IMG/VR virus record: IMGVR_UViG_3300043754_000129
Location: 192,001 to 256,000 of that record
Reading direction: 5' to 3' (one strand)
DNA: 64,000 nucleotides
Source of the DNA: a virus
Lineage: Duplodnaviria > Caudoviricetes
Shown here: positions 6,002 to 15,149 of the stretch, piece by piece
Layout: each line of letters starts with the position of its first letter
How positions within the stretch are numbered: position 1 is the stretch's first letter
The notes under the pieces: generated by a model
Seen by the model: the letters and a program-made list of their open reading frames with translations, nothing else
The model's database searches: none
What the model was told of the DNA's origin: nothing
Translations under genes and position numbers: made by a program

Positions 6002-7120
6002 ATGGACGACATCGAAATCCTGAATCAGCCAGCCGATCAGCATCCAGACCATCTGGAGATCGAGCACTACATCCTCGACCACAACACGATCTGTGACAGC
6101 GTGAGCATGCTCGACGAGATCCGTGAACACCTGATCGGTCTGCAAGGCCTGAACGTCGCGATGGAAGGCATCGCACTCGAAAGCCTGGGGGAGACCCTCA
6201 AGGCGTACTGGCAACAGTTCCTGGCCTTCCTGAAGAAGATCTGGGAAAAGATCGTCGCGTTCTTCGAAGCGCACTTCACGGTGCTCGGTCGTCGACGTCT
6301 GCACATCAAGCGCATGATGACGAAGGTCAAGTCGCTCAGCACGAACCCGGAAGTCTACCGCAAGCTCAAGGACTCGCACAAAGACATCGTGATCGCCCAC
6401 GCCAACGTGCAAGCCTTCATGATCGGCGGCAAGGCCATCACGGGCGCTGAAGAGCTCCTGGGTGCCCTCACGCGCACACGCGCCGCTGTCACGGTGGTGA
6501 CTGATGACTACGCGAAGTACATCGTCGATCAGCGGATCGTGAAGATCAGCAAGACGCTCGAAGCCGCGACGGTGGAAAACGCAGCTGGCCTCTACGAGCG
6601 CATCGTCCAGGAAATGGAGCACAATGCGTTCCACGTCGGTCAGCAAGAGATGCTGGGCAACGTGAGCGTGACGTACGGTGGCGGTGGCAGCGATCTGGAC
6701 GCGCACCGTCTGGTGCTCGCGGAAAAGCAAGTCGGTCACCAAGACATCCTCTTCACGCCCATGACGATCGAGGACCTCGCCAAGGTCTACGCGAACATGG
6801 AAGGCGTGCTCGACGAGATGGACAACTTCAAGAACGGCGAGTACAAGCAACTCGTCTCGGCCGCTCAAGGCATGATGCGCCTCACGGACACGATGGTCAA
6901 GAAGTTGAGCACCGGTGCTCAAGACGGTAGCGCCGAAGCCGTCAAGCAGCTTCTGGGCCTGAACAAACACTACGTGAACTGGATCAAGGCACCGATGACT
7001 GATCTGGTGCGCCACATCACGACGAGCTTCTTCTACATCGGCCACGAGATGGAAGAGAACATCTCGTTGTATGAGCAGCACGAAGCGCTCAATTTCTTCA
7101 AAGTCATCGGCATGTGCTAA
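6002..7120 (+). CDS. Internal head (ejection) protein, protease-processed paralog family
   Basis: VAME/IALE sites followed by amphipathic helix GETLKAYWQQFLAFLKKIWEKIVAFF; start moved to MDDIEIL. Confidence 0.7.
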   Translation: MDDIEILNQPADQHPDHLEIEHYILDHNTICDSVSMLDEIREHLIGLQGLNVAMEGIALESLGETLKAYWQQFLAFLKKIWEKIVAFFEAHFTVLGRRRLHIKRMMTKVKSLSTNPEVYRKLKDSHKDIVIAHANVQAFMIGGKAITGAEELLGALTRTRAAVTVVTDDYAKYIVDQRIVKISKTLEAATVENAAGLYERIVQEMEHNAFHVGQQEMLGNVSVTYGGGGSDLDAHRLVLAEKQVGHQDILFTPMTIEDLAKVYANMEGVLDEMDNFKNGEYKQLVSAAQGMMRLTDTMVKKLSTGAQDGSAEAVKQLLGLNKHYVNWIKAPMTDLVRHITTSFFYIGHEMEENISLYEQHEALNFFKVIGMC

Positions 7121-7134
7121 GTGAGCAGACAATC

Positions 7135-8208
7135 ATGAAAAGCTTTGTTTCACAACTCTGGTCGCTCGGCCTCGAACCGAACCTCCGTCCCGCGCTCGAA
7201 GCGGAAATGATCAACAAGCGTCACGTCGAGTTGCTCCTCACTGACGACCCCGTGCTCGCGGGCATGGGTGGTGCCTGTGTGTTCGTCTTTGCGCGCCCCA
7301 TGCTGGAGAAGGCCAAAGACTTCCTGCGGGCTGTCGAGGGCGGCTACGTGGACGCAACGACCACGAACAACCCATCGCTCCTGCCGGAGATCAAGAAGGT
7401 CGTCGAGTACCCGCCTGATGTGTACCTCGCGCTCTTTAGCTCGAAGCTGAAGGCGTCGATGTCGCAAGGTGAATTCGACGCCGTGGTGCAGCACGAGTAC
7501 GGTCACGTCAATCACCGCCACCTCGAACAGCAACGATGGGGCGGCTACCACGAATTTATCACGCACGAGAAGGAAGCCGACAACTACGCGGTGACCGCTG
7601 GTGGCGCGAAGGTCGAGGACATGATCACGGGTCTGGAGAAGGCCATGCACTTCGGTGCCGAGCAAGCCGTGCTCTGGCAACAGGGTGCGTCGAACTCGTT
7701 CATTCGCAAGCTGCTCGATAGCGACATCATCGATGCGGCCACGGTGAAGTTCGCCGTCCGTCAAGCACGCATGATGCACGGCGCGCGTTTCACGACGCTC
7801 AAGAAGCTGAAGGCGCAGCGCGATGCTGGCAAGGCCGAGACGCCGATCGTGTCGTCGGGTAAGAACGTGCCGGATAACACGCTCGCCAAGCACAAGCTCC
7901 AGATGTCGAAGATCCATGGGGACTCGCCGGAACGCCAGGCTGAGATCCAGGAAGAGATCGACGCGCTGAACCGTGGCGAGACGCCGACCACCCACATCAA
8001 GAAGCCGACGCCGGCTCCGGCGCCGACGCAGAAAGGTGCGGACATGAACGGTCGCCTCGATCGGTTCCAGGAACGGATGAATAAGCTGGGTCGCAGCGTC
8101 GGGGGCGGTGAAGGTAGTTCGGACACCGAAACCCTCAAGGATCGCATGCGTGCGCAAAGCGACGCGACGCAGGAGCGCCTGAACAAGCTGAACAAGCAAG
8201 ACGCGTAA
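7135..8208 (+). CDS. Putative virion zinc metallopeptidase (HExxH) with charged C-terminal tail
   Basis: QHEYGH followed by HEKEADNYA (M48/zincin-like pattern); PALE site near the N-terminus; located in the head-protein block. Confidence 0.6.
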   Translation: MKSFVSQLWSLGLEPNLRPALEAEMINKRHVELLLTDDPVLAGMGGACVFVFARPMLEKAKDFLRAVEGGYVDATTTNNPSLLPEIKKVVEYPPDVYLALFSSKLKASMSQGEFDAVVQHEYGHVNHRHLEQQRWGGYHEFITHEKEADNYAVTAGGAKVEDMITGLEKAMHFGAEQAVLWQQGASNSFIRKLLDSDIIDAATVKFAVRQARMMHGARFTTLKKLKAQRDAGKAETPIVSSGKNVPDNTLAKHKLQMSKIHGDSPERQAEIQEEIDALNRGETPTTHIKKPTPAPAPTQKGADMNGRLDRFQERMNKLGRSVGGGEGSSDTETLKDRMRAQSDATQERLNKLNKQDA

Positions 8209-8275: not shown

Positions 8276-10393
8276 ATGTTTGCGGCGTTGCGTCGAGTCC
8301 TCGGTCTGATCGAGGTCCAGGAAAGCGGGGATCTTATCCGCATTACTGGCTTACCCGGCGATAGCGTAATGAAGACGATCTACGAGGTGTGGGGAACCAG
8401 TAAGATCGCGGAGAACTTGTTCTCCAGAATTACGCCGTCGGAAGTATCATTCAATCGTTTTTTTGCCGTGGACGTCGTCTATGCTTTCACGCGCATCATC
8501 AACGAAAAGCGCAAGGGTGCCCCGATCCGCGCGCTCAAGAAGATCGTGGCGCTCATGTACGAGCACACGTGGCTCAAAGACACGCTCGTACGGCATCCCG
8601 ACATCCTGGATCGCCAACAGCTGAACCAACTGAAGTGGGGTCCGCTGGAACACCAGGACGGCTTCTTCGATTGGTTTAACGAGATGATCCCACGCTTCAA
8701 ATTGCGTGGGGCACTCCTCGGTGCAGGTCCGGGCACGGGCAAGACCTTCATGGGTCTGTCGCTCTCCCTGATGCTGCACGCGGATGTGACCATCATCGTC
8801 TGTCCGCCACGGGCTGTGAAGAAGGTCTGGGAAGACACGATCGTCGAGCAGTTCAAGCGTCCGGTGGGTTACTGGCACTCCCAGATGGGTACGGCCATTC
8901 CCCGGGGCAAGAAGTACTACATCATCCACTACGACTTCCTGCCGAAGTTCATGGAGTTCGTCCGCCAGAACCACTGGAGCAAACCAGTGATCCTGTTGGA
9001 TGAGTCGCACGGGATGAATGAAATGGAAGCGTTGCGTACGCAGCTCTTTATTGAGCTCTGTAACGTCACGCGCTGTCAGTATGTACTGTGGGAGTCGGGC
9101 ACGCCTGTGAAGGCCATAGGCGGCGAAATGGCGCCTCTGTTCCGTACGATCGATCCGATGTTCGATGAAGACGCGCAAATGCGCTTCAAGGCGATCTACG
9201 GCAAGAACACGAGTCGCGCCAATGACGTGCTTGCGCACCGTCTCGGCAAGGTCACCTACAAGGTTGACTCCAACAGCGTGGTGGATGTGAAGGTCACGCA
9301 CCACAAGGTCAAGGTGGTGATCCCGAACGCGAAGGACTACACACTGACCGCCATTCGCGCTGAGATGAAAGCCTTCATCCAGGAACGGGTGGAGCATTAC
9401 CAGTCCAACATGCGGATGTACGAGCGCATGTATGACCAGGCGATCTATCAGTTTGAACGCACGCTGATTACGCCTGAGCAGAAGGACAACTTCAAGACGT
9501 ACATGCGGTACATGAAACAGATCCGCCGGGGCTATGACCCGAAGATGCATCAGGAGATGGCCGTCTGGTGCAACAAGTACGAACAGAAGATCATCATGCC
9601 AGCGCTGCCTAAGCAGCTGCGCGATAACCTCAAGCAATCGAAGTCGGTGGTCAAGTACTACAAACTGAAGGTGCAAGGGGAAGCGTTGGGCAACGTGCTG
9701 GGCCGCAAGCGTGGCCAGTGTATTGCCGACATGGTGCCGCACATGGGGCTGGAGAACATCATCGATAGCGCCTTGAAGAAGACGCTCATCTTTACCAGCT
9801 ATGTGGGTGCAGTGGATGCAGCAGGGGATTACCTGAAGGCGCGCGGCTATCATCCGTTGCGGGTCTATGGGGAAACCAACAACGAACTCGCTGGCATGGT
9901 GAACGAGTTTAAGAATTCGGAAGACGCCAACCCGATGATTGCGACCTATCAGTCGCTCTCGTCCGCGGTCCCGCTCGTGATGGCGAATGTGGAGATCATG
10001 ATGAACTCCCCGTTCCGCTCGTTTGAATACGACCAGGCCGTCGCTCGGGTGAAGCGTCTGGGGCAGGATGAAGACGTCGACATCTACGACGTGGTGTTGG
10101 ATACGGGCAACGAGGTGAACATCTCGAGCCGCACGATCGACATCATGAACTGGAGTCGTGAGCAGGTCAATGAGATCATGGGCTTTGAGAATTCGCCGCT
10201 GGTGGGTGCGATCTCGCGTGAGAGCTACATGACCATGGACCCGGAACTGAACACGGCCGGCGAAACCCCGATGGACCTGAGCCCGATCCTCTTGCAAGAG
10301 TTCTCGGACAACATGGTGCTGAACGGCTACGCCATGGAAGGCTTCCACGTCGAGGAAGAACCGATGTGGGCACAATGGGCCACGTTGCCATAA
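8276..10393 (+). CDS. SNF2/SF2 helicase
   Basis: Walker A GAGPGTGKT, LLDESH, ESGTP, LIFTSY and motif VI QAVARVKRLGQ. Confidence 0.88.
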   Translation: MFAALRRVLGLIEVQESGDLIRITGLPGDSVMKTIYEVWGTSKIAENLFSRITPSEVSFNRFFAVDVVYAFTRIINEKRKGAPIRALKKIVALMYEHTWLKDTLVRHPDILDRQQLNQLKWGPLEHQDGFFDWFNEMIPRFKLRGALLGAGPGTGKTFMGLSLSLMLHADVTIIVCPPRAVKKVWEDTIVEQFKRPVGYWHSQMGTAIPRGKKYYIIHYDFLPKFMEFVRQNHWSKPVILLDESHGMNEMEALRTQLFIELCNVTRCQYVLWESGTPVKAIGGEMAPLFRTIDPMFDEDAQMRFKAIYGKNTSRANDVLAHRLGKVTYKVDSNSVVDVKVTHHKVKVVIPNAKDYTLTAIRAEMKAFIQERVEHYQSNMRMYERMYDQAIYQFERTLITPEQKDNFKTYMRYMKQIRRGYDPKMHQEMAVWCNKYEQKIIMPALPKQLRDNLKQSKSVVKYYKLKVQGEALGNVLGRKRGQCIADMVPHMGLENIIDSALKKTLIFTSYVGAVDAAGDYLKARGYHPLRVYGETNNELAGMVNEFKNSEDANPMIATYQSLSSAVPLVMANVEIMMNSPFRSFEYDQAVARVKRLGQDEDVDIYDVVLDTGNEVNISSRTIDIMNWSREQVNEIMGFENSPLVGAISRESYMTMDPELNTAGETPMDLSPILLQEFSDNMVLNGYAMEGFHVEEEPMWAQWATLP

Positions 10394-10467
10394 GACAGGC
10401 ATAAATCATTTGATGAATAGCTGTTTCATCTGTAGCTATCTATTATCCATGAAACAGGAAAAGGACA

Positions 10468-12912
10468 ATGGACCTGAATACCCTCATCCATAAGGCGGCG
10501 TTTGGTGACCGCGGCCTCACGCTCGAGAACCTGGACGACTCCCTGCCCGAAGGTGGGGATTCGGAGCTGGGCAGCTACGCTGACAGCGCTGATGCATGGG
10601 CGGACTACGGCAATGCGATGAATGTCGCCGCTGAAGCCATCCGTGACTACAGCATCCAGCTCGAAGGTCTGATCGAGCGCAAGGAACTGAACGCGGTCAC
10701 GCTCGGCCTCATCCGTGACGCCGCGCAACGCTGCGCGACGACCGTCGGCTACGAAATCAATCTGCCGTCGATGGAAAGCGTCGAGACGCAATCGATCGAA
10801 GAACAGGGCGCGGTGGCGCTCGAAGGTTTCCGTCAGGTGATCTTCAATCTGTTCCAAGATTACGTGCTGCACTTCAAGCACCACAAGGACGTGATCGGCG
10901 ACTTCTTCCGCTCGACCTCGGGCATTCTCAACAAGTACGAGAAGAAGACGCTCCAGAACAAGGCCGAGTACAACTCGAAGAAGAACAAGATCGGCAATCA
11001 GGAAATCGCCGTGGCCTTCGTCGGCCTCGACTACTTCCTGTCGAACACGAAGGCGATGAAGGAATACCGCTTCAGCGACTTCATGGGCCTGCTGCGTCAA
11101 GATCGCCAGATGTCGAACTTCGCGCTCAAGGAATACCCGAAGCGCGTGCTCGCCGAAATCGATGCACTCGCGAAGCTGCTGCGCGGCTCGAGCCTGAAGA
11201 CCGACGCGGACGTGCAAAAGCTCGCGAAGGCTGTCGAGCAACTGAAGTCGCCCTCGGAACTGTTCGACGAGCACCTCCTGGACGTGGAGGGCTTCGGCTC
11301 GTCCAAGTTTGTCGCTGTCAAGCGCGGCGGCAAGAATCGTCTGGACGTGCTCGCGGCCGCCAAGCCGGTCACGCTGTCCAAGCCCATCGGTGCTACGGTC
11401 GGTAACGCCATCATGGCGGGTGTGCAGTCGTTCGGTGGTCGCGTGGTGGCGTCGGCTCTGCCGGTGGTGGGTGCCACGACGGGCGGTATGGCTCACGCGG
11501 TTGCTGCGCCGGTCATGGCTGCTCGCGCCATCTACGAAGGCGTGGGCGACGACAAGGGCAAGATCATGCTCAACGGCAGCGACATCGGTCGCGTGCTGGA
11601 AGCCGCGGAAGGCTACATCAACGACGTGCGTTACTTCCTGTCGACTGAGCGTGAAGTGGCGCGCATGATCGACGAGATGGAAGGCGCGGTCAAGGCTGCG
11701 GAAGCCAAGGGTCAAGCCGACGCGAAGGCCGAAGACGCAGGCGAACACGCCATGGGTTCGGTGCATCTGTACGAGAAGATCCTCGCGGTCTCGCGCGTGC
11801 TGATGCGTGCCGTGCAAACGCCGGCACAGCAAGAAGTCGCTCGTGCGCTGAAGGCCAGCAAGTACCTGAACTACCTGGCCCTGCGCGCCATCTTCAATGC
11901 GAAGAACCACGCCATGGAAGGCATGGACAATCCGGAATCGGGCGCGTTCGCACGCGGCGAAGGCGACGCCAACCTGCACAAGGAAAGCACGCCGGCAGTC
12001 AACCCGGGCCTGGCAGCGCAAGCCAAGCAGATCAATGGCGACAAGCCGATCAACACGGACGACCTCGATGCCCCGATGCATGCAGCAACGGAAGGCAAGA
12101 AGGACGAAGCCACGGACATGGTGCATGGTGCAGCGGTCGACCCGAGCAAGTCGACGTGCGACATCGAAGGCCACGCCGTGGATCCGACGAAGACGGGCGA
12201 AACGCCGGAAATCGAAGGCGCGGAACTGAAGCCGGCCAAGGAAGCCTACACCGAAGTTGAAGAAGGCGCCGTGGGCGAACATCACGCTGCGATCATCGAC
12301 AAGATCTACGACAAAGCCGAAGTGATTCCGAGCGAAGGCATTCGCATTCACATCGTGCACGACGTGTGTCAAATCGAGGCCGAGTTCGACAAGAAGATCA
12401 AGGCACATCCGGAACAACGCGAAGCTCTCCTGAAGGAAGCGGGCGAACGTCTGGACGCTGTCCTCGAGCGCGTAGACGCCACGTTCGAACATCACGGCTG
12501 GGATGTCGACGGCAAGAAGGTCGCTCTCGAAGGCCTGATGGAAACCGCCAAGTCGAAGAAGGCGAAGTTCAAGGGCGCCAACGATGAAGAAATCGCGGCA
12601 CTCGAGAAGGCCATCGGCTTCAAGCTTCCGGTCGCGTACCGCAAGTACCTGAAGGACTTCGGCTACATTGCTTGCGGCGGCAATGAAGTTTACGGCGCAG
12701 CGCGCGGTCACCTGAGCGCGGTCGAGATGTACGAAGACCTGAGCCGTAGCGATACGTTCCCGAAGCAAGCCATCCCCCTGATGGAAATCGGTGACGGCCA
12801 CTACTACATCCTGAACGCTGGCAAGGTGGTCGAATGGGCCAACGGCGGGATCGTCAAGAGCGGCAGCATGAGCTTCACCGACTTCCTCGAGAAGAAGGTG
12901 TTCGAAGATTAA
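10468..12912 (+). CDS. Internal head polyprotein with C-terminal SMI1/KNR4 (SUKH) domain
   Basis: SME, ALE, AME, ATE and ALE protease-type sites; C-terminus GANDEEIAALEKAIGFKLPVAYRKYLKDFG...NEVYG...PLMEIGDGHYYIL matches the SUKH pattern. Confidence 0.75.
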   Translation: MDLNTLIHKAAFGDRGLTLENLDDSLPEGGDSELGSYADSADAWADYGNAMNVAAEAIRDYSIQLEGLIERKELNAVTLGLIRDAAQRCATTVGYEINLPSMESVETQSIEEQGAVALEGFRQVIFNLFQDYVLHFKHHKDVIGDFFRSTSGILNKYEKKTLQNKAEYNSKKNKIGNQEIAVAFVGLDYFLSNTKAMKEYRFSDFMGLLRQDRQMSNFALKEYPKRVLAEIDALAKLLRGSSLKTDADVQKLAKAVEQLKSPSELFDEHLLDVEGFGSSKFVAVKRGGKNRLDVLAAAKPVTLSKPIGATVGNAIMAGVQSFGGRVVASALPVVGATTGGMAHAVAAPVMAARAIYEGVGDDKGKIMLNGSDIGRVLEAAEGYINDVRYFLSTEREVARMIDEMEGAVKAAEAKGQADAKAEDAGEHAMGSVHLYEKILAVSRVLMRAVQTPAQQEVARALKASKYLNYLALRAIFNAKNHAMEGMDNPESGAFARGEGDANLHKESTPAVNPGLAAQAKQINGDKPINTDDLDAPMHAATEGKKDEATDMVHGAAVDPSKSTCDIEGHAVDPTKTGETPEIEGAELKPAKEAYTEVEEGAVGEHHAAIIDKIYDKAEVIPSEGIRIHIVHDVCQIEAEFDKKIKAHPEQREALLKEAGERLDAVLERVDATFEHHGWDVDGKKVALEGLMETAKSKKAKFKGANDEEIAALEKAIGFKLPVAYRKYLKDFGYIACGGNEVYGAARGHLSAVEMYEDLSRSDTFPKQAIPLMEIGDGHYYILNAGKVVEWANGGIVKSGSMSFTDFLEKKVFED

Positions 12913-12933: not shown

Positions 12934-12961
12934 GGAGGGGCTTCGGCCCCTCCTTTATTTT
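12934..12961 (+). terminator. Intrinsic terminator
   Basis: GGAGGGGC-TTCG-GCCCCTCC followed by TTTATTTT. Confidence 0.9.
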
Positions 12962-12977
12962 GCTAGGTGACAAGGAA

Positions 12978-15149
12978 ATGGATTACACGGTACGACGCGC
13001 CGAGGTCGACCTGATTGCACTGGAGGGGCATCTTGCCTCGCTGGATGCAGTACGCGCACAACTCGAAACGCGCAATATCACCCAGGGTCTCGCACTCGAA
13101 TGCGATGCTCTCATGCACGCCAACCGGGGTCAAGGTTCCCTGTTGGCACTGGCCTATGACCGTAGCGCTACGAGCAAAGACTACCAAGTCGCACTCGAAG
13201 GCGTGATCAATACGGTCTGGGAAACGATCAAGCTCGTGGTCCGCAAGATCATCGAGTACGTCAAGAAATTCTGGTTGTGGATCACGGGCAAGAGCAACAC
13301 CGTCACGCCGGAGAAAGCGGAAGCGGCTGAACAGGCGGCCAGCGGCTTCGAGAAAGCATTCCGCGACTGGCTGGAGCAGCTGCCCCATGTTGAGGTCGAC
13401 TTGCAGTTCACCAAGGACGGCAAGACGACTACCTTCACCAACAAGAAGGATGGGGGTGCAACGGATCCGGAAGTCGAGCGTCTGAACAAGCAAGCGGAAG
13501 CTTCGCATGCGGAAGCCGATCGGCTGCGCAGTCAGATTCCGGAGATTCAGCGCCGCGGTGACGAAGCGGTCAAGCTGGTGAAGGAGCATGGTCCCGAGAA
13601 AGCTGCACAGATGATCCGCGATGGTCATCTCGTGAATGAGCTGAAGGATCACGTGAGTGAAGCCGCGAAGGATGCAGAGCACACGCAGAATTTGACGGAC
13701 AAGCTCAAGCAGCCTCACGAGGCCATCAAGCCGCTCGATCCCTCCAGCATTAAGGTTACGCGCCGGGAAGGCGCCACCGATCCGAAGACCCAGTTCCATG
13801 TCAATCAGGTCAATGAAACGGCCGCCCGCGTTCGCGAGCAGAATGACAAAGTGAACGAGATGCTGGATGGTCATCCCAGCAAGACGTTCGATCTGGACGC
13901 TGGGACTGTGCGCGGCCAAGGTGGTCCGGTTACGGATGCACTGAATGCCCGCAAGCCCAAGATCGGTCAGACCAGTGCCAAACTGGATCCGGAAAAGCAC
14001 AAGGCAGAATCTTCGGCCCATGCCCAGCAGATTCAGTCGCAGATCGACGACGAACAGGGTCTCCTCGATGCCGCTAACGAGCGTCTGTCGGATACCCGCC
14101 GCCGCAAGCAGAACGGTCAGCCGATGCACTCGATGTATGGTGGCGGCAACGACCATGACCACTGGATCGGCAGCGACGAAGACTTCGTCAAGAAGTCCCA
14201 AGCCAAGATCGACGGTCTGCGTGCCAAGCTCGGCAAGCCGGCAACCGAAAGCATTGCCACGGAAGACGCGGGCATCGGTCATCTGAAGCCTGTCGATGCA
14301 CTGAACGCCACGGCTGAAAGCATGAAGAGTCAGTTCCTCTCGGGTCTGCCGCGTCCCGAGGCATTGATTCTCTTCTCGCAAAGCTACGGCAGCAACTTGG
14401 AACAGCTCGCTCGTGAGTTCTCTCACTTGAAGCCGATCGAGGCGCTCGCGCGTCGCTACGAGCAGCTCAATGAACTGTTGCCCAAGTTCATCGCCGAAGC
14501 CGCTCAGATTGACACCATCAAGGATGCGTCGGAGCGTCAGCAGCGGATCGCGGACTTCCAGCACCGCGTCGAGAAGACCCTCGAGAGCGCCCTGGATCGT
14601 GAGGGTGGCAAGACGGATGACGCCGATCAACTGGCCAGCGATATCAAGCGCTTCCAGGCAGCCCGGGAGAGCCATGGTACCGGTGACTTCGAGATCGACA
14701 CGCCGGCCACGGGTGATCGGCTCATGCACGTGGCAGCCATCACGGATACGACCTTCCGTACGGTGCGTGCGGTGATCGCAGAAGTGCAGTCGGCAGCTAC
14801 GGAACTCAAGACGCTGGAGACGGCGCTCGAAGGGTTGAGCAGCAAGATCGTAGCGATCTCGGCAGGTAGCAGCGCATCGGCCACCGACTACGTGGCGCAT
14901 GCGCTCAACAGTGAAGTGCGGTTCGTGTCCATGCGTGTGCGCACCATCACGCAAGGCATGGCGGTCTTCACCAACTATTACACGGACGCACATCGCGCGG
15001 TCTCGCGTTATCAGAAGTTTGTGATCAAGGTCGTGGATACCGCACTCAAGCAGATGAATGGTGAGCACGAGTTCCAGGAAGATCGCGTTCGCAGTGCGCT
15101 TGCACACATGCGAGATGCATCGCGCTCGTTTGATCGCTTGGCTGCTTAA
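12978..15149 (+). CDS. Large internal head protein, protease-processed paralog family
   Basis: IALE, LALE, VALE sites then amphipathic helix GVINTVWETIKLVVRKIIEYVKKFWLWITG; internal IATE site; start moved to MDYTV after AAGGAA RBS. Confidence 0.7.
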   Translation: MDYTVRRAEVDLIALEGHLASLDAVRAQLETRNITQGLALECDALMHANRGQGSLLALAYDRSATSKDYQVALEGVINTVWETIKLVVRKIIEYVKKFWLWITGKSNTVTPEKAEAAEQAASGFEKAFRDWLEQLPHVEVDLQFTKDGKTTTFTNKKDGGATDPEVERLNKQAEASHAEADRLRSQIPEIQRRGDEAVKLVKEHGPEKAAQMIRDGHLVNELKDHVSEAAKDAEHTQNLTDKLKQPHEAIKPLDPSSIKVTRREGATDPKTQFHVNQVNETAARVREQNDKVNEMLDGHPSKTFDLDAGTVRGQGGPVTDALNARKPKIGQTSAKLDPEKHKAESSAHAQQIQSQIDDEQGLLDAANERLSDTRRRKQNGQPMHSMYGGGNDHDHWIGSDEDFVKKSQAKIDGLRAKLGKPATESIATEDAGIGHLKPVDALNATAESMKSQFLSGLPRPEALILFSQSYGSNLEQLAREFSHLKPIEALARRYEQLNELLPKFIAEAAQIDTIKDASERQQRIADFQHRVEKTLESALDREGGKTDDADQLASDIKRFQAARESHGTGDFEIDTPATGDRLMHVAAITDTTFRTVRAVIAEVQSAATELKTLETALEGLSSKIVAISAGSSASATDYVAHALNSEVRFVSMRVRTITQGMAVFTNYYTDAHRAVSRYQKFVIKVVDTALKQMNGEHEFQEDRVRSALAHMRDASRSFDRLAA

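Follow-up and report, generated by a model that had tools for sequence, protein, structure and literature searches.

The open reading frame at 10468-12912 on the plus strand of the window studied here (a stretch of 64,000 nucleotides, bases 192001-256000 of the IMG/VR record IMGVR_UViG_3300043754_000129, which totals 323,678 bp; G+C content about 57%) is open throughout and encodes a protein of 814 amino acids (aa), P0001, in which a domain of the SUKH superfamily stands at the C-terminal end of what appears to be an internal head protein (IP) of the phiKZ family. Such a fusion of a head protein to a SUKH domain suggests a pre-made counter-weapon. The explanation that we favour, and consider somewhat more probable than improbable, is that the IP carrier would be trimmed by the prohead protease and the SUKH domain delivered as an injected inhibitor. 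The source of the DNA is an uncultured jumbo phage of the phiKZ type that probably forms a nucleus; its genome encodes two homologues of chimallin, the phiKZ nuclear shell protein (C1:80177-81718, minus strand, E 5e-28; C1:51769-53019, minus strand, E 4e-13), and a DnaB-like helicase whose closest relative among cultured phages is that of Burkholderia phage FLC9 (51%).

The C-terminal domain belongs to the SUKH superfamily by both profile and fold. Residues 692-809 match SUKH_5 with an E-value of 2.8e-17 (63.3 bits, with a Pfam cut-off of 27), SUKH_6 (44.9 bits) and SMI1_KNR4 (44.0 bits) also exceed their cut-offs on the C-terminus, and the SUKH signature EEIAALEKAIGFKLPVAYRKYLK is found in the protein, which holds the sole SUKH domain of the genome. 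A model of aa 575-814 obtained with AlphaFold2 (AF2) from 82 SUKH homologues has a mean predicted local distance difference test score (pLDDT) of 87, rising above 90 across the SUKH domain, and a predicted template modelling score (pTM) of 0.77. The best Foldseek matches in the Protein Data Bank (PDB) were B. subtilis YobK (2prv, TM by target 0.71), Lin2918 (2icg, also retrieved by sequence alone), PSPTO_5518 (2pag), BF1740 (3d5p) and yeast Knr4. The domain opens with G689, the first residue of GLMETAK at nt 12532, and its closest stand-alone relative, P0019 (137 aa), begins about 2 residues or less from this position (alignment A2). An earlier note on this DNA, made from the letters alone, had called the C-terminal domain SUKH and had described an inner-head-type N-terminus followed by an acidic linker; the family call is borne out by the profile search and the AF2 fold, and the rest of the layout by the PF12699/PHROG relationship described below and by a linker with an isoelectric point (pI) of 4.4. 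The note passed over a bundle of three helices (aa 601-676) that separates the linker from the SUKH domain. This bundle has no Pfam match, and its look-alikes are generic helical ones only. In the full-length AF2 model pLDDT is below 50 across aa 480-631.

The N-terminal part of the protein is a family module. Seventeen metagenomic homologues match aa 1 to about 484, with 29-60% identity in the alignment and 32-68% in BLASTP, and are divergent beyond this point. Of the 18 proteins in the family, 13 match Pfam phiKZ_IP (PF12699) at E <= 0.01, the best with E 4e-13, and P0001 matches PHROG 5750, 'internal head protein', with an E-value of 4.5e-5. Through these homologues and the IP paralogues encoded next to it, the gene would be a paralogue of the phiKZ-family internal head (inner-body or ejected) proteins, a reading which, taken jointly with the favoured explanation as a whole, we place slightly on the probable side. 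The close homologues of P0001 do not carry SUKH, but bear different C-terminal modules. In P0002-P0008, P0011, P0017 and P0018 (alignment A1) a conserved Cys/His-rich module of about 90 aa (ACNF..EGPEV..HGC..HCQ) replaces the SUKH domain, and some of these proteins have one further C-terminal module; A-T-E|G/A precedes the Cys/His-rich module and T-T-E|G the further one, which suggests modular cargo.

The combination of IP and SUKH is not restricted to this phage. When 1.84 billion cluster representatives were searched exhaustively with aa 680-814 in HMMER, 113 matches resulted, most of them stand-alone proteins of 120-170 aa and several of them long proteins with SUKH at or near the C-terminus. 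Both PF12699 and SUKH exceed their cut-offs in P0022 (926 aa), P0047 (602 aa) and P0079 (606 aa), P0093 (570 aa) combines SUKH with a sub-threshold PF12699 match (22.5 bits), P0027 (792 aa) and P0093 adjoin PF12699 genes, and P0077 and P0101 have SUKH on a carrier without family assignment. P0022 is encoded at L007:8001-10781 on a 294.6-kb JGI contig, where its gene closes a tandem IP array that has a gp91-like gene beside it; in this protein an Hva1_TUDOR domain comes after SUKH, and S-A-E, S-L-E, G-A-E and S-M-E motifs flank both. P0079 likewise ends a tandem IP array in another phage, and both arrays adjoin gp91-like and head-tail joining genes. The carriers of these fusions have no BLAST similarity to that of P0001, and a minimum of five further jumbo-phage lineages from metagenomes have the IP+SUKH architecture. 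A tree of the SUKH domain (88 rows, 148 columns) is not resolved: seven of the eight fused domains and the three LHH-linked proteins labelled in it share a subtree with weak support, and no claim for one origin of the fusion, or for several, can be based on it. Searches of 50,697 cultured-phage records (August 2025; tblastn among the searches) with the gene and with its SUKH domain gave no match and no fusion, and P0079 and P0022 match cultured phages across their IP parts only. A word-indexed search with aa 689-814 returned the query alone; scanning IMG/VR gave nothing with the single P0001 protein and one locus with the family alignment.

The recurrence bears on whether the domain has any function outside the head. 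SUKH might play a structural or assembly part there, in inner-body packing or a protein contact, with nothing to do after ejection, or might be a recent functionless capture; inner-body proteins are abundant structural components of which some are retained in the head (10.1101/2024.03.24.586471), and the close homologues of P0001 manage without SUKH. We nevertheless find this improbable, since SUKH recurs on highly divergent carriers across several phage lineages with its core preserved, from which selection on the domain itself may be argued, and since a carrier that stays constant while its C-terminal cargo varies is the arrangement seen in effector delivery.

The ancestry of the domain is indicated by its bacterial relatives. 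Among the stand-alone relatives whose upstream gene could be read, the five nearest are P0019 (41% identity), P0023, P0026, P0050 and P0036. The gene of each follows, at a distance of 0-32 nt, a gene for an LHH nuclease, and the products of these upstream genes end in the LHH domain (PF14411, of the HNH/EndoVII superfamily), with E-values of 1e-26 to 1e-28. A sixth relative, P0030, was uninformative. Because all five informative relatives sit directly behind LHH genes, the phage domain derives from LHH immunity proteins, and the nuclease-immunity background that the earlier note gives for SUKH domains in general is confirmed here for five of five informative stand-alone relatives. Judged by these relationships, the P0001 domain is a member of the SUKH_5 group whose bacterial members are predicted immunity proteins of LHH DNase toxins. 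At L022:1-3408 an LHH toxin/SUKH immunity pair lies directly 3' of a large FtsK/DUF87-type ATPase gene, possibly as a secretion- or transfer-linked toxin cassette.

SUKH proteins are typically the cognate partners of an adjacent toxin (PMC3113570), as in the LHH neighbourhoods just described, and toxins packaged in phage heads have been predicted (PMC3482391). The domain could in this case give self-immunity or act as a chaperone for a co-packaged or co-expressed toxic phage protein, comparable to the immunity genes of MuF-type toxins, and would shield the producer cell or load its partner into the head; the HEYGH protein (7114-8208) and the IP-like protein (12960-15149) could be such partners. 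The phage genome, however, has no LHH domain at E <= 1, and a search of the P0001 gene, the genes around it and the remaining IP paralogues detected no toxin family. This lack of a detectable toxin in or beside the gene weakens the self-immunity interpretation, as do the presence of only one SUKH domain in the genome and the absence, in precomputed Pfam matches, of an adjacent toxin domain at the SUKH fusions of other phages, and we would not expect it to be correct.

The favoured explanation also involves proteolysis in the head. That heads of this phage are matured in the phiKZ manner, as the earlier note had assumed, agrees with the presence of a homologue of the phiKZ gp175 prohead protease at C1:124513-125235 (minus strand; 40% identity, E 4e-38), which surfaced with phiKZ gp175 as the query; the Peptidase_S77 (T4 gp21) profile had no match in the genome. 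The protease of the related phage SPN3US has the specificity A-x-E with Val preferred at P4, and the mapped propeptides of IP-like SPN3US head proteins are 111-137 aa long (PMC10052503). In P0001, A-x-E-G occurs five times (aa 119, 381, 484, 542 and 688) with 0.83 expected. The site at aa 119, [VI]-A-[LM]-E-[GS], is invariant in 18/18 homologues; [SAG]-x-E is kept in all 18 at aa 56, 103, 119 and 394 and in most at aa 96, 106 and 111, and at aa 484, where the shared module ends, A-x-E is found in all 16 homologues long enough to reach beyond this position. A-x-E-[GS] occurs 85 times across the family with 19.5 expected (18 related sequences, so that the counts are not independent), and the non-homologous C-terminal extensions within the family have their own copies of the motif ahead of each module. 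Among 226 crude gene calls, IP paralogues rank 1st, 4th, 6th and 9th for A-x-E-[GS]. V-A-L-E-119 closely fits the SPN3US specificity and the 119-aa segment ahead of it falls within the SPN3US propeptide lengths (PMC10052503); on these grounds cleavage after aa 119 (V-A-L-E|G) is predicted to be the likeliest maturation cut.

The second V-A-L-E, immediately before SUKH, is the one at which the earlier note expected the domain to be released. The motif is present, at aa 685-688 (nt 12520-12531), and the positions 12523-12531 quoted for it cover A-L-E only. V-A-L-E-688|G is an exact repeat of the invariant site at aa 116-120 placed at a domain boundary, and its residues suit what the SPN3US protease prefers, V(P4)-A(P3)-x-E(P1) (PMC10052503). 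Cleavage at E688 is plausible, unproven, and in our estimate about evenly balanced. It is no more than plausible because the generic motif is not enriched, even though A-x-E-G/S is enriched and is conserved at aa 119 and 484.

With these elements the favoured explanation can be put as a series of steps. As judged from phiKZ and SPN3US, the module of aa 1-484 would carry P0001 into the prohead, where the gp175-type protease would remove the acidic N-terminal segment of about 119 residues at V-A-L-E|G and would probably cut again at A-M-E-484|G, with A-T-E-542|G and V-A-L-E-688|G as possible further sites. The SUKH domain, freed or tethered, would remain in the filled head, enter the cell with the DNA and act there as a ready-made protein-binding inhibitor derived from the immunity proteins of LHH-type HNH/EndoVII DNases, its target most likely being a host nuclease or toxin-like effector that acts prior to phage gene expression. 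We infer the packaging, cleavage, injection, inhibitory function and target of the P0001 SUKH domain from comparison with studied systems, among them phiKZ, whose PF12699 proteins gp93, gp95 and gp97 are proteolysed and injected, and in which C-terminal mNeonGreen and sfCherry2 fusions to PF12699 proteins are packaged and reach the cell (10.1101/2024.03.24.586471). Since such C-terminal fluorescent fusions are injected, a natural C-terminal domain would be expected to be delivered as well, cut or uncut.

Several observations weigh against this explanation, most of them against the release of the domain. The generic motif [SAG]-x-E occurs 20 times in P0001 with 19.5 expected from composition, and VALE alone is for this reason no better than chance; as evidence of cleavage by itself it was rejected. 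Copies of [SAG]-x-E at aa 713, 740 and 753 fall within the SUKH fold, so that the motif alone does not predict cutting. A motif lies just upstream of SUKH in seven of the eight fusions, which is not significant (about 59% per protein expected by chance, p ~0.1). In the C-terminal model the VALE connector reaches pLDDT 82-90 and so may be packed; the full-length model shows it as a helix of low confidence. In SPN3US about 80% of the head proteins are uncut, and all mapped cuts, the protease itself excepted, remove N-terminal propeptides (PMC10052503). Other points concern the carrier and the target: P0001 itself reaches PF12699 with 15.8 and 13.1 bits only, below the cut-off of 27; some phiKZ PF12699 proteins (gp162) stay in the head, and the injected inner-body proteins co-localise with the early lipid (EPI) vesicle, which is free of restriction and CRISPR nucleases (10.1101/2024.03.24.586471); a PADLOC scan of the LHH toxins and the SUKH domain gave no meaningful match; and the phage is known from a metagenomic record alone. 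No link to a catalogued anti-phage system was found, since none of the PADLOC models is matched by the LHH toxins. Because the EPI vesicle lacks these nucleases, the earlier proposal that the domain acts 'before the genome is shielded' needs care, the injected phiKZ proteins being located with that vesicle (10.1101/2024.03.24.586471).

Part of this evidence is what would be expected if SUKH were delivered and never released. Only E119, and perhaps E484, would then be cut, and SUKH would work at the end of a longer ejected protein, where it might, for instance, anchor a host protein to the complex of DNA and protein that is injected, or to the vesicle of early infection. The conserved sites are those at aa 119 and 484 and not that at aa 688, the mapped cuts in giant-phage substrates take off N-terminal propeptides (PMC10052503), phiKZ gp93, gp95 and gp97 with uncleaved C-terminal fluorescent proteins are injected (10.1101/2024.03.24.586471), and AF2 gives the helix bundle and SUKH as a single confident unit (pTM 0.77). 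On the other side stand the duplication of the invariant site in VALE|G, its position exactly at the domain boundary, and the motif sites of P0022, which flank SUKH on both sides. We regard delivery without release as unlikely, if deserving of more weight than the structural and self-immunity interpretations.

It is tempting to extend the favoured explanation to the family, in a form that we offer tentatively and with more doubt than belief. The variable C-termini of phiKZ-family inner-body proteins might be swappable counter-defence cargo delimited by prohead-protease sites; here and in several other phages an immunity protein from an LHH/HNH nuclease toxin system would be freed in the head and injected, and would neutralise an HNH-type nuclease of the host within the minutes that precede protection of the genome by the vesicle and the phage nucleus.

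The features of the gene and of its neighbours in the window are collected in Table 1.

Table 1. Features of the P0001 gene and of the adjacent IP-type genes, in window coordinates.
Feature	Position	Strand	Basis or remark
Whole gene, IP carrier plus C-terminal SUKH, 814 aa	10468-12912	+	Profiles, homologues
Acidic propeptide-like segment, aa 1-119	10468-10824	+	pI 4.1; [SAG]-x-E motifs
V-A-L-E, aa 116-119, followed by G	10813-10824	+	Invariant motif; likeliest maturation cut
Basic helical IP body, aa 120-484	10825-11919	+	pI 9.4; conserved in the family; ends in A-M-E (aa 482-484, nt 11911-11919), then G
Acidic linker, aa 485-600, predicted disordered	11920-12267	+	pI 4.4; 25 D+E against 10 K+R
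A-T-E|G, aa 540-542, in the linker	12085-12093	+	Motif
Three-helix bundle, aa 601-676	12268-12495	+	AF2 (helices 601-618, 623-646 and 648-676)
Non-helical connector, aa 677-688, ending in V-A-L-E (aa 685-688, nt 12520-12531)	12496-12531	+	Candidate protease site
SUKH domain, aa 689-814	12532-12909	+	Profiles, AF2, Foldseek
IP paralogue, 409 aa	5891-7120	+	PF12699 E 4.3e-22; PHROG 2497 'internal head protein' E 8.7e-12
HEYGH protein, 364 aa	7114-8208	+	Zinc-peptidase-like motif; Peptidase_M48 E 0.0093 (below cut-off); Lys/Glu-rich tail
SNF2-type helicase	8276-10393	+	PHROG_62 E 3e-103; within the IP-type gene block
IP-like paralogue, 729 aa	12960-15149	+	Weak PF12699 match; VALEG close to the N-terminus

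The start of the P0001 gene is backed by its 17 homologues, all of which open with MDLNTLIHKAA, and its codon-position G+C (0.65/0.38/0.79) is the same as in the adjacent genes, the value of 0.79 at the third position (GC3) marking the plus strand as coding. An antisense open reading frame of 791 aa (10426-12801) was considered as a gene and ruled out; it shows the mirrored GC3 pattern and is for this reason a shadow. The HEYGH protein is possibly a virion-packaged metallopeptidase, since its gene is wedged between the IP paralogue and the helicase. Since annotation treats the phiKZ helicase gp203 as structural, the IP-type block in the window may encode ejected proteins generally. The product of 12960-15149 has the highest A-x-E-[GS] enrichment of the 226 crude gene calls (5 with 0.84 expected), and its C-terminal part, which has no family match, may be another cargo. 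The canonical IP array of the genome makes up a second IP locus at C1:25-28 kb, adjoining head-tail joining and tail tube genes.

P0001 resembles the PF12699 proteins of the phiKZ family (phiKZ gp92-97 and gp162-163, SPN3US gp53/54) in its helical module, its acidic N-terminal propeptide-like segment and its A/S/G-x-E sites, in occurring among clustered paralogues, and in a genome that encodes a gp175-type protease and chimallin. The IPs of phiKZ are proteolysed, packaged and mostly injected, as P0001 is predicted to be; virion presence, processing and ejection are documented for phiKZ and SPN3US relatives. P0001 differs in falling below the Pfam cut-off as part of a divergent subfamily found in metagenomes only, in a C-terminal extension of 330 aa that ends in SUKH, which the described IPs do not have, and in its location in another IP locus than the canonical array, which adjoins the head-tail joining gene.

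The closest functional parallel may be found in T4, where Ip1-3 are packaged, processed and injected inhibitors of distinct GmrSD nucleases (PMC12373910). Ip1 (IPI*), Ip2 and Ip3 would share with P0001 the logic of being targeted to the capsid, trimmed by protease and injected, and the T4 target GmrSD is of the HNH/His-Me-finger kind (PMC12373910). There is no sequence or fold relationship and the likeness would be functional only. The T4 leader is about 10 aa long and is cut at L/I-x-E; P0001 has no such leader but a carrier of about 480 aa with an acidic phiKZ-type N-terminus of 119 aa, and its putative inhibitor, unlike Ip1-3, has a recognisable bacterial immunity-protein fold. With the bacterial immunity proteins that have this fold (YobK and the LHH-linked SUKH_5 proteins) the domain shares the Pfam families and the fold, with 32-41% identity to the LHH-linked stand-alone proteins; it differs from them in being fused to a phage virion-type protein, with no toxin gene detected beside it. 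Animal DNA viruses also reuse SUKH, which has been proposed to bind host antiviral proteins (herpesvirus US22/TRS1/IRS1 and others; PMC3113570). These domains are SUKH-3-like, are expressed after entry and are not known as capsid-fusion cargo, whereas that of P0001 is SUKH_5-like and belongs to a bacteriophage head protein. Polyvalent proteins (Iyer et al. 2017) and MuF-fused toxins resemble P0001 in combining several domains in one protein for which packaging in the capsid and delivery alongside the DNA are predicted, in some cases with protease processing. The carrier of P0001 is in contrast an inner-body protein, and P0001 has no MuF, toxin or enzyme domain. Polyvalent proteins are defined by two or more conflict-related effector domains in a single polypeptide delivered by capsid or T4SS; P0001 has one recognisable effector-type domain, SUKH, and the helix bundle at aa 601-676, which is without assignment.

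A literature search combining SUKH or SMI1/KNR4 with phiKZ, jumbo phages, internal head proteins or anti-defence found no paper that links them; the founding SUKH paper (Zhang, Iyer & Aravind 2011; PMC3113570) does not treat phages, and neither SUKH nor phiKZ appears in the survey of polyvalent proteins (Iyer et al. 2017). The earlier supposition that the fusion had not been described agrees with this search, but the fusion is not unique, since further jumbo phages from metagenomes also have it. Each component is known already, as is the logic, and it is their combination, its recurrence and the LHH-immunity ancestry that appear undescribed.

The function of ejected proteins becomes concretely testable with one IP paralogue that has a toxin-binding immunity fold and an ancestry that can be traced to the partners of LHH DNases, the question being what the SUKH domain binds. 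If the favoured explanation is true, it would extend the principle of T4 Ip1-3 to nucleus-forming jumbo phages and would mean that phages reuse bacterial toxin-immunity modules as injected counter-defence, and the other variable C-terminal modules of the P0001 protein family could then be read as cargo too.

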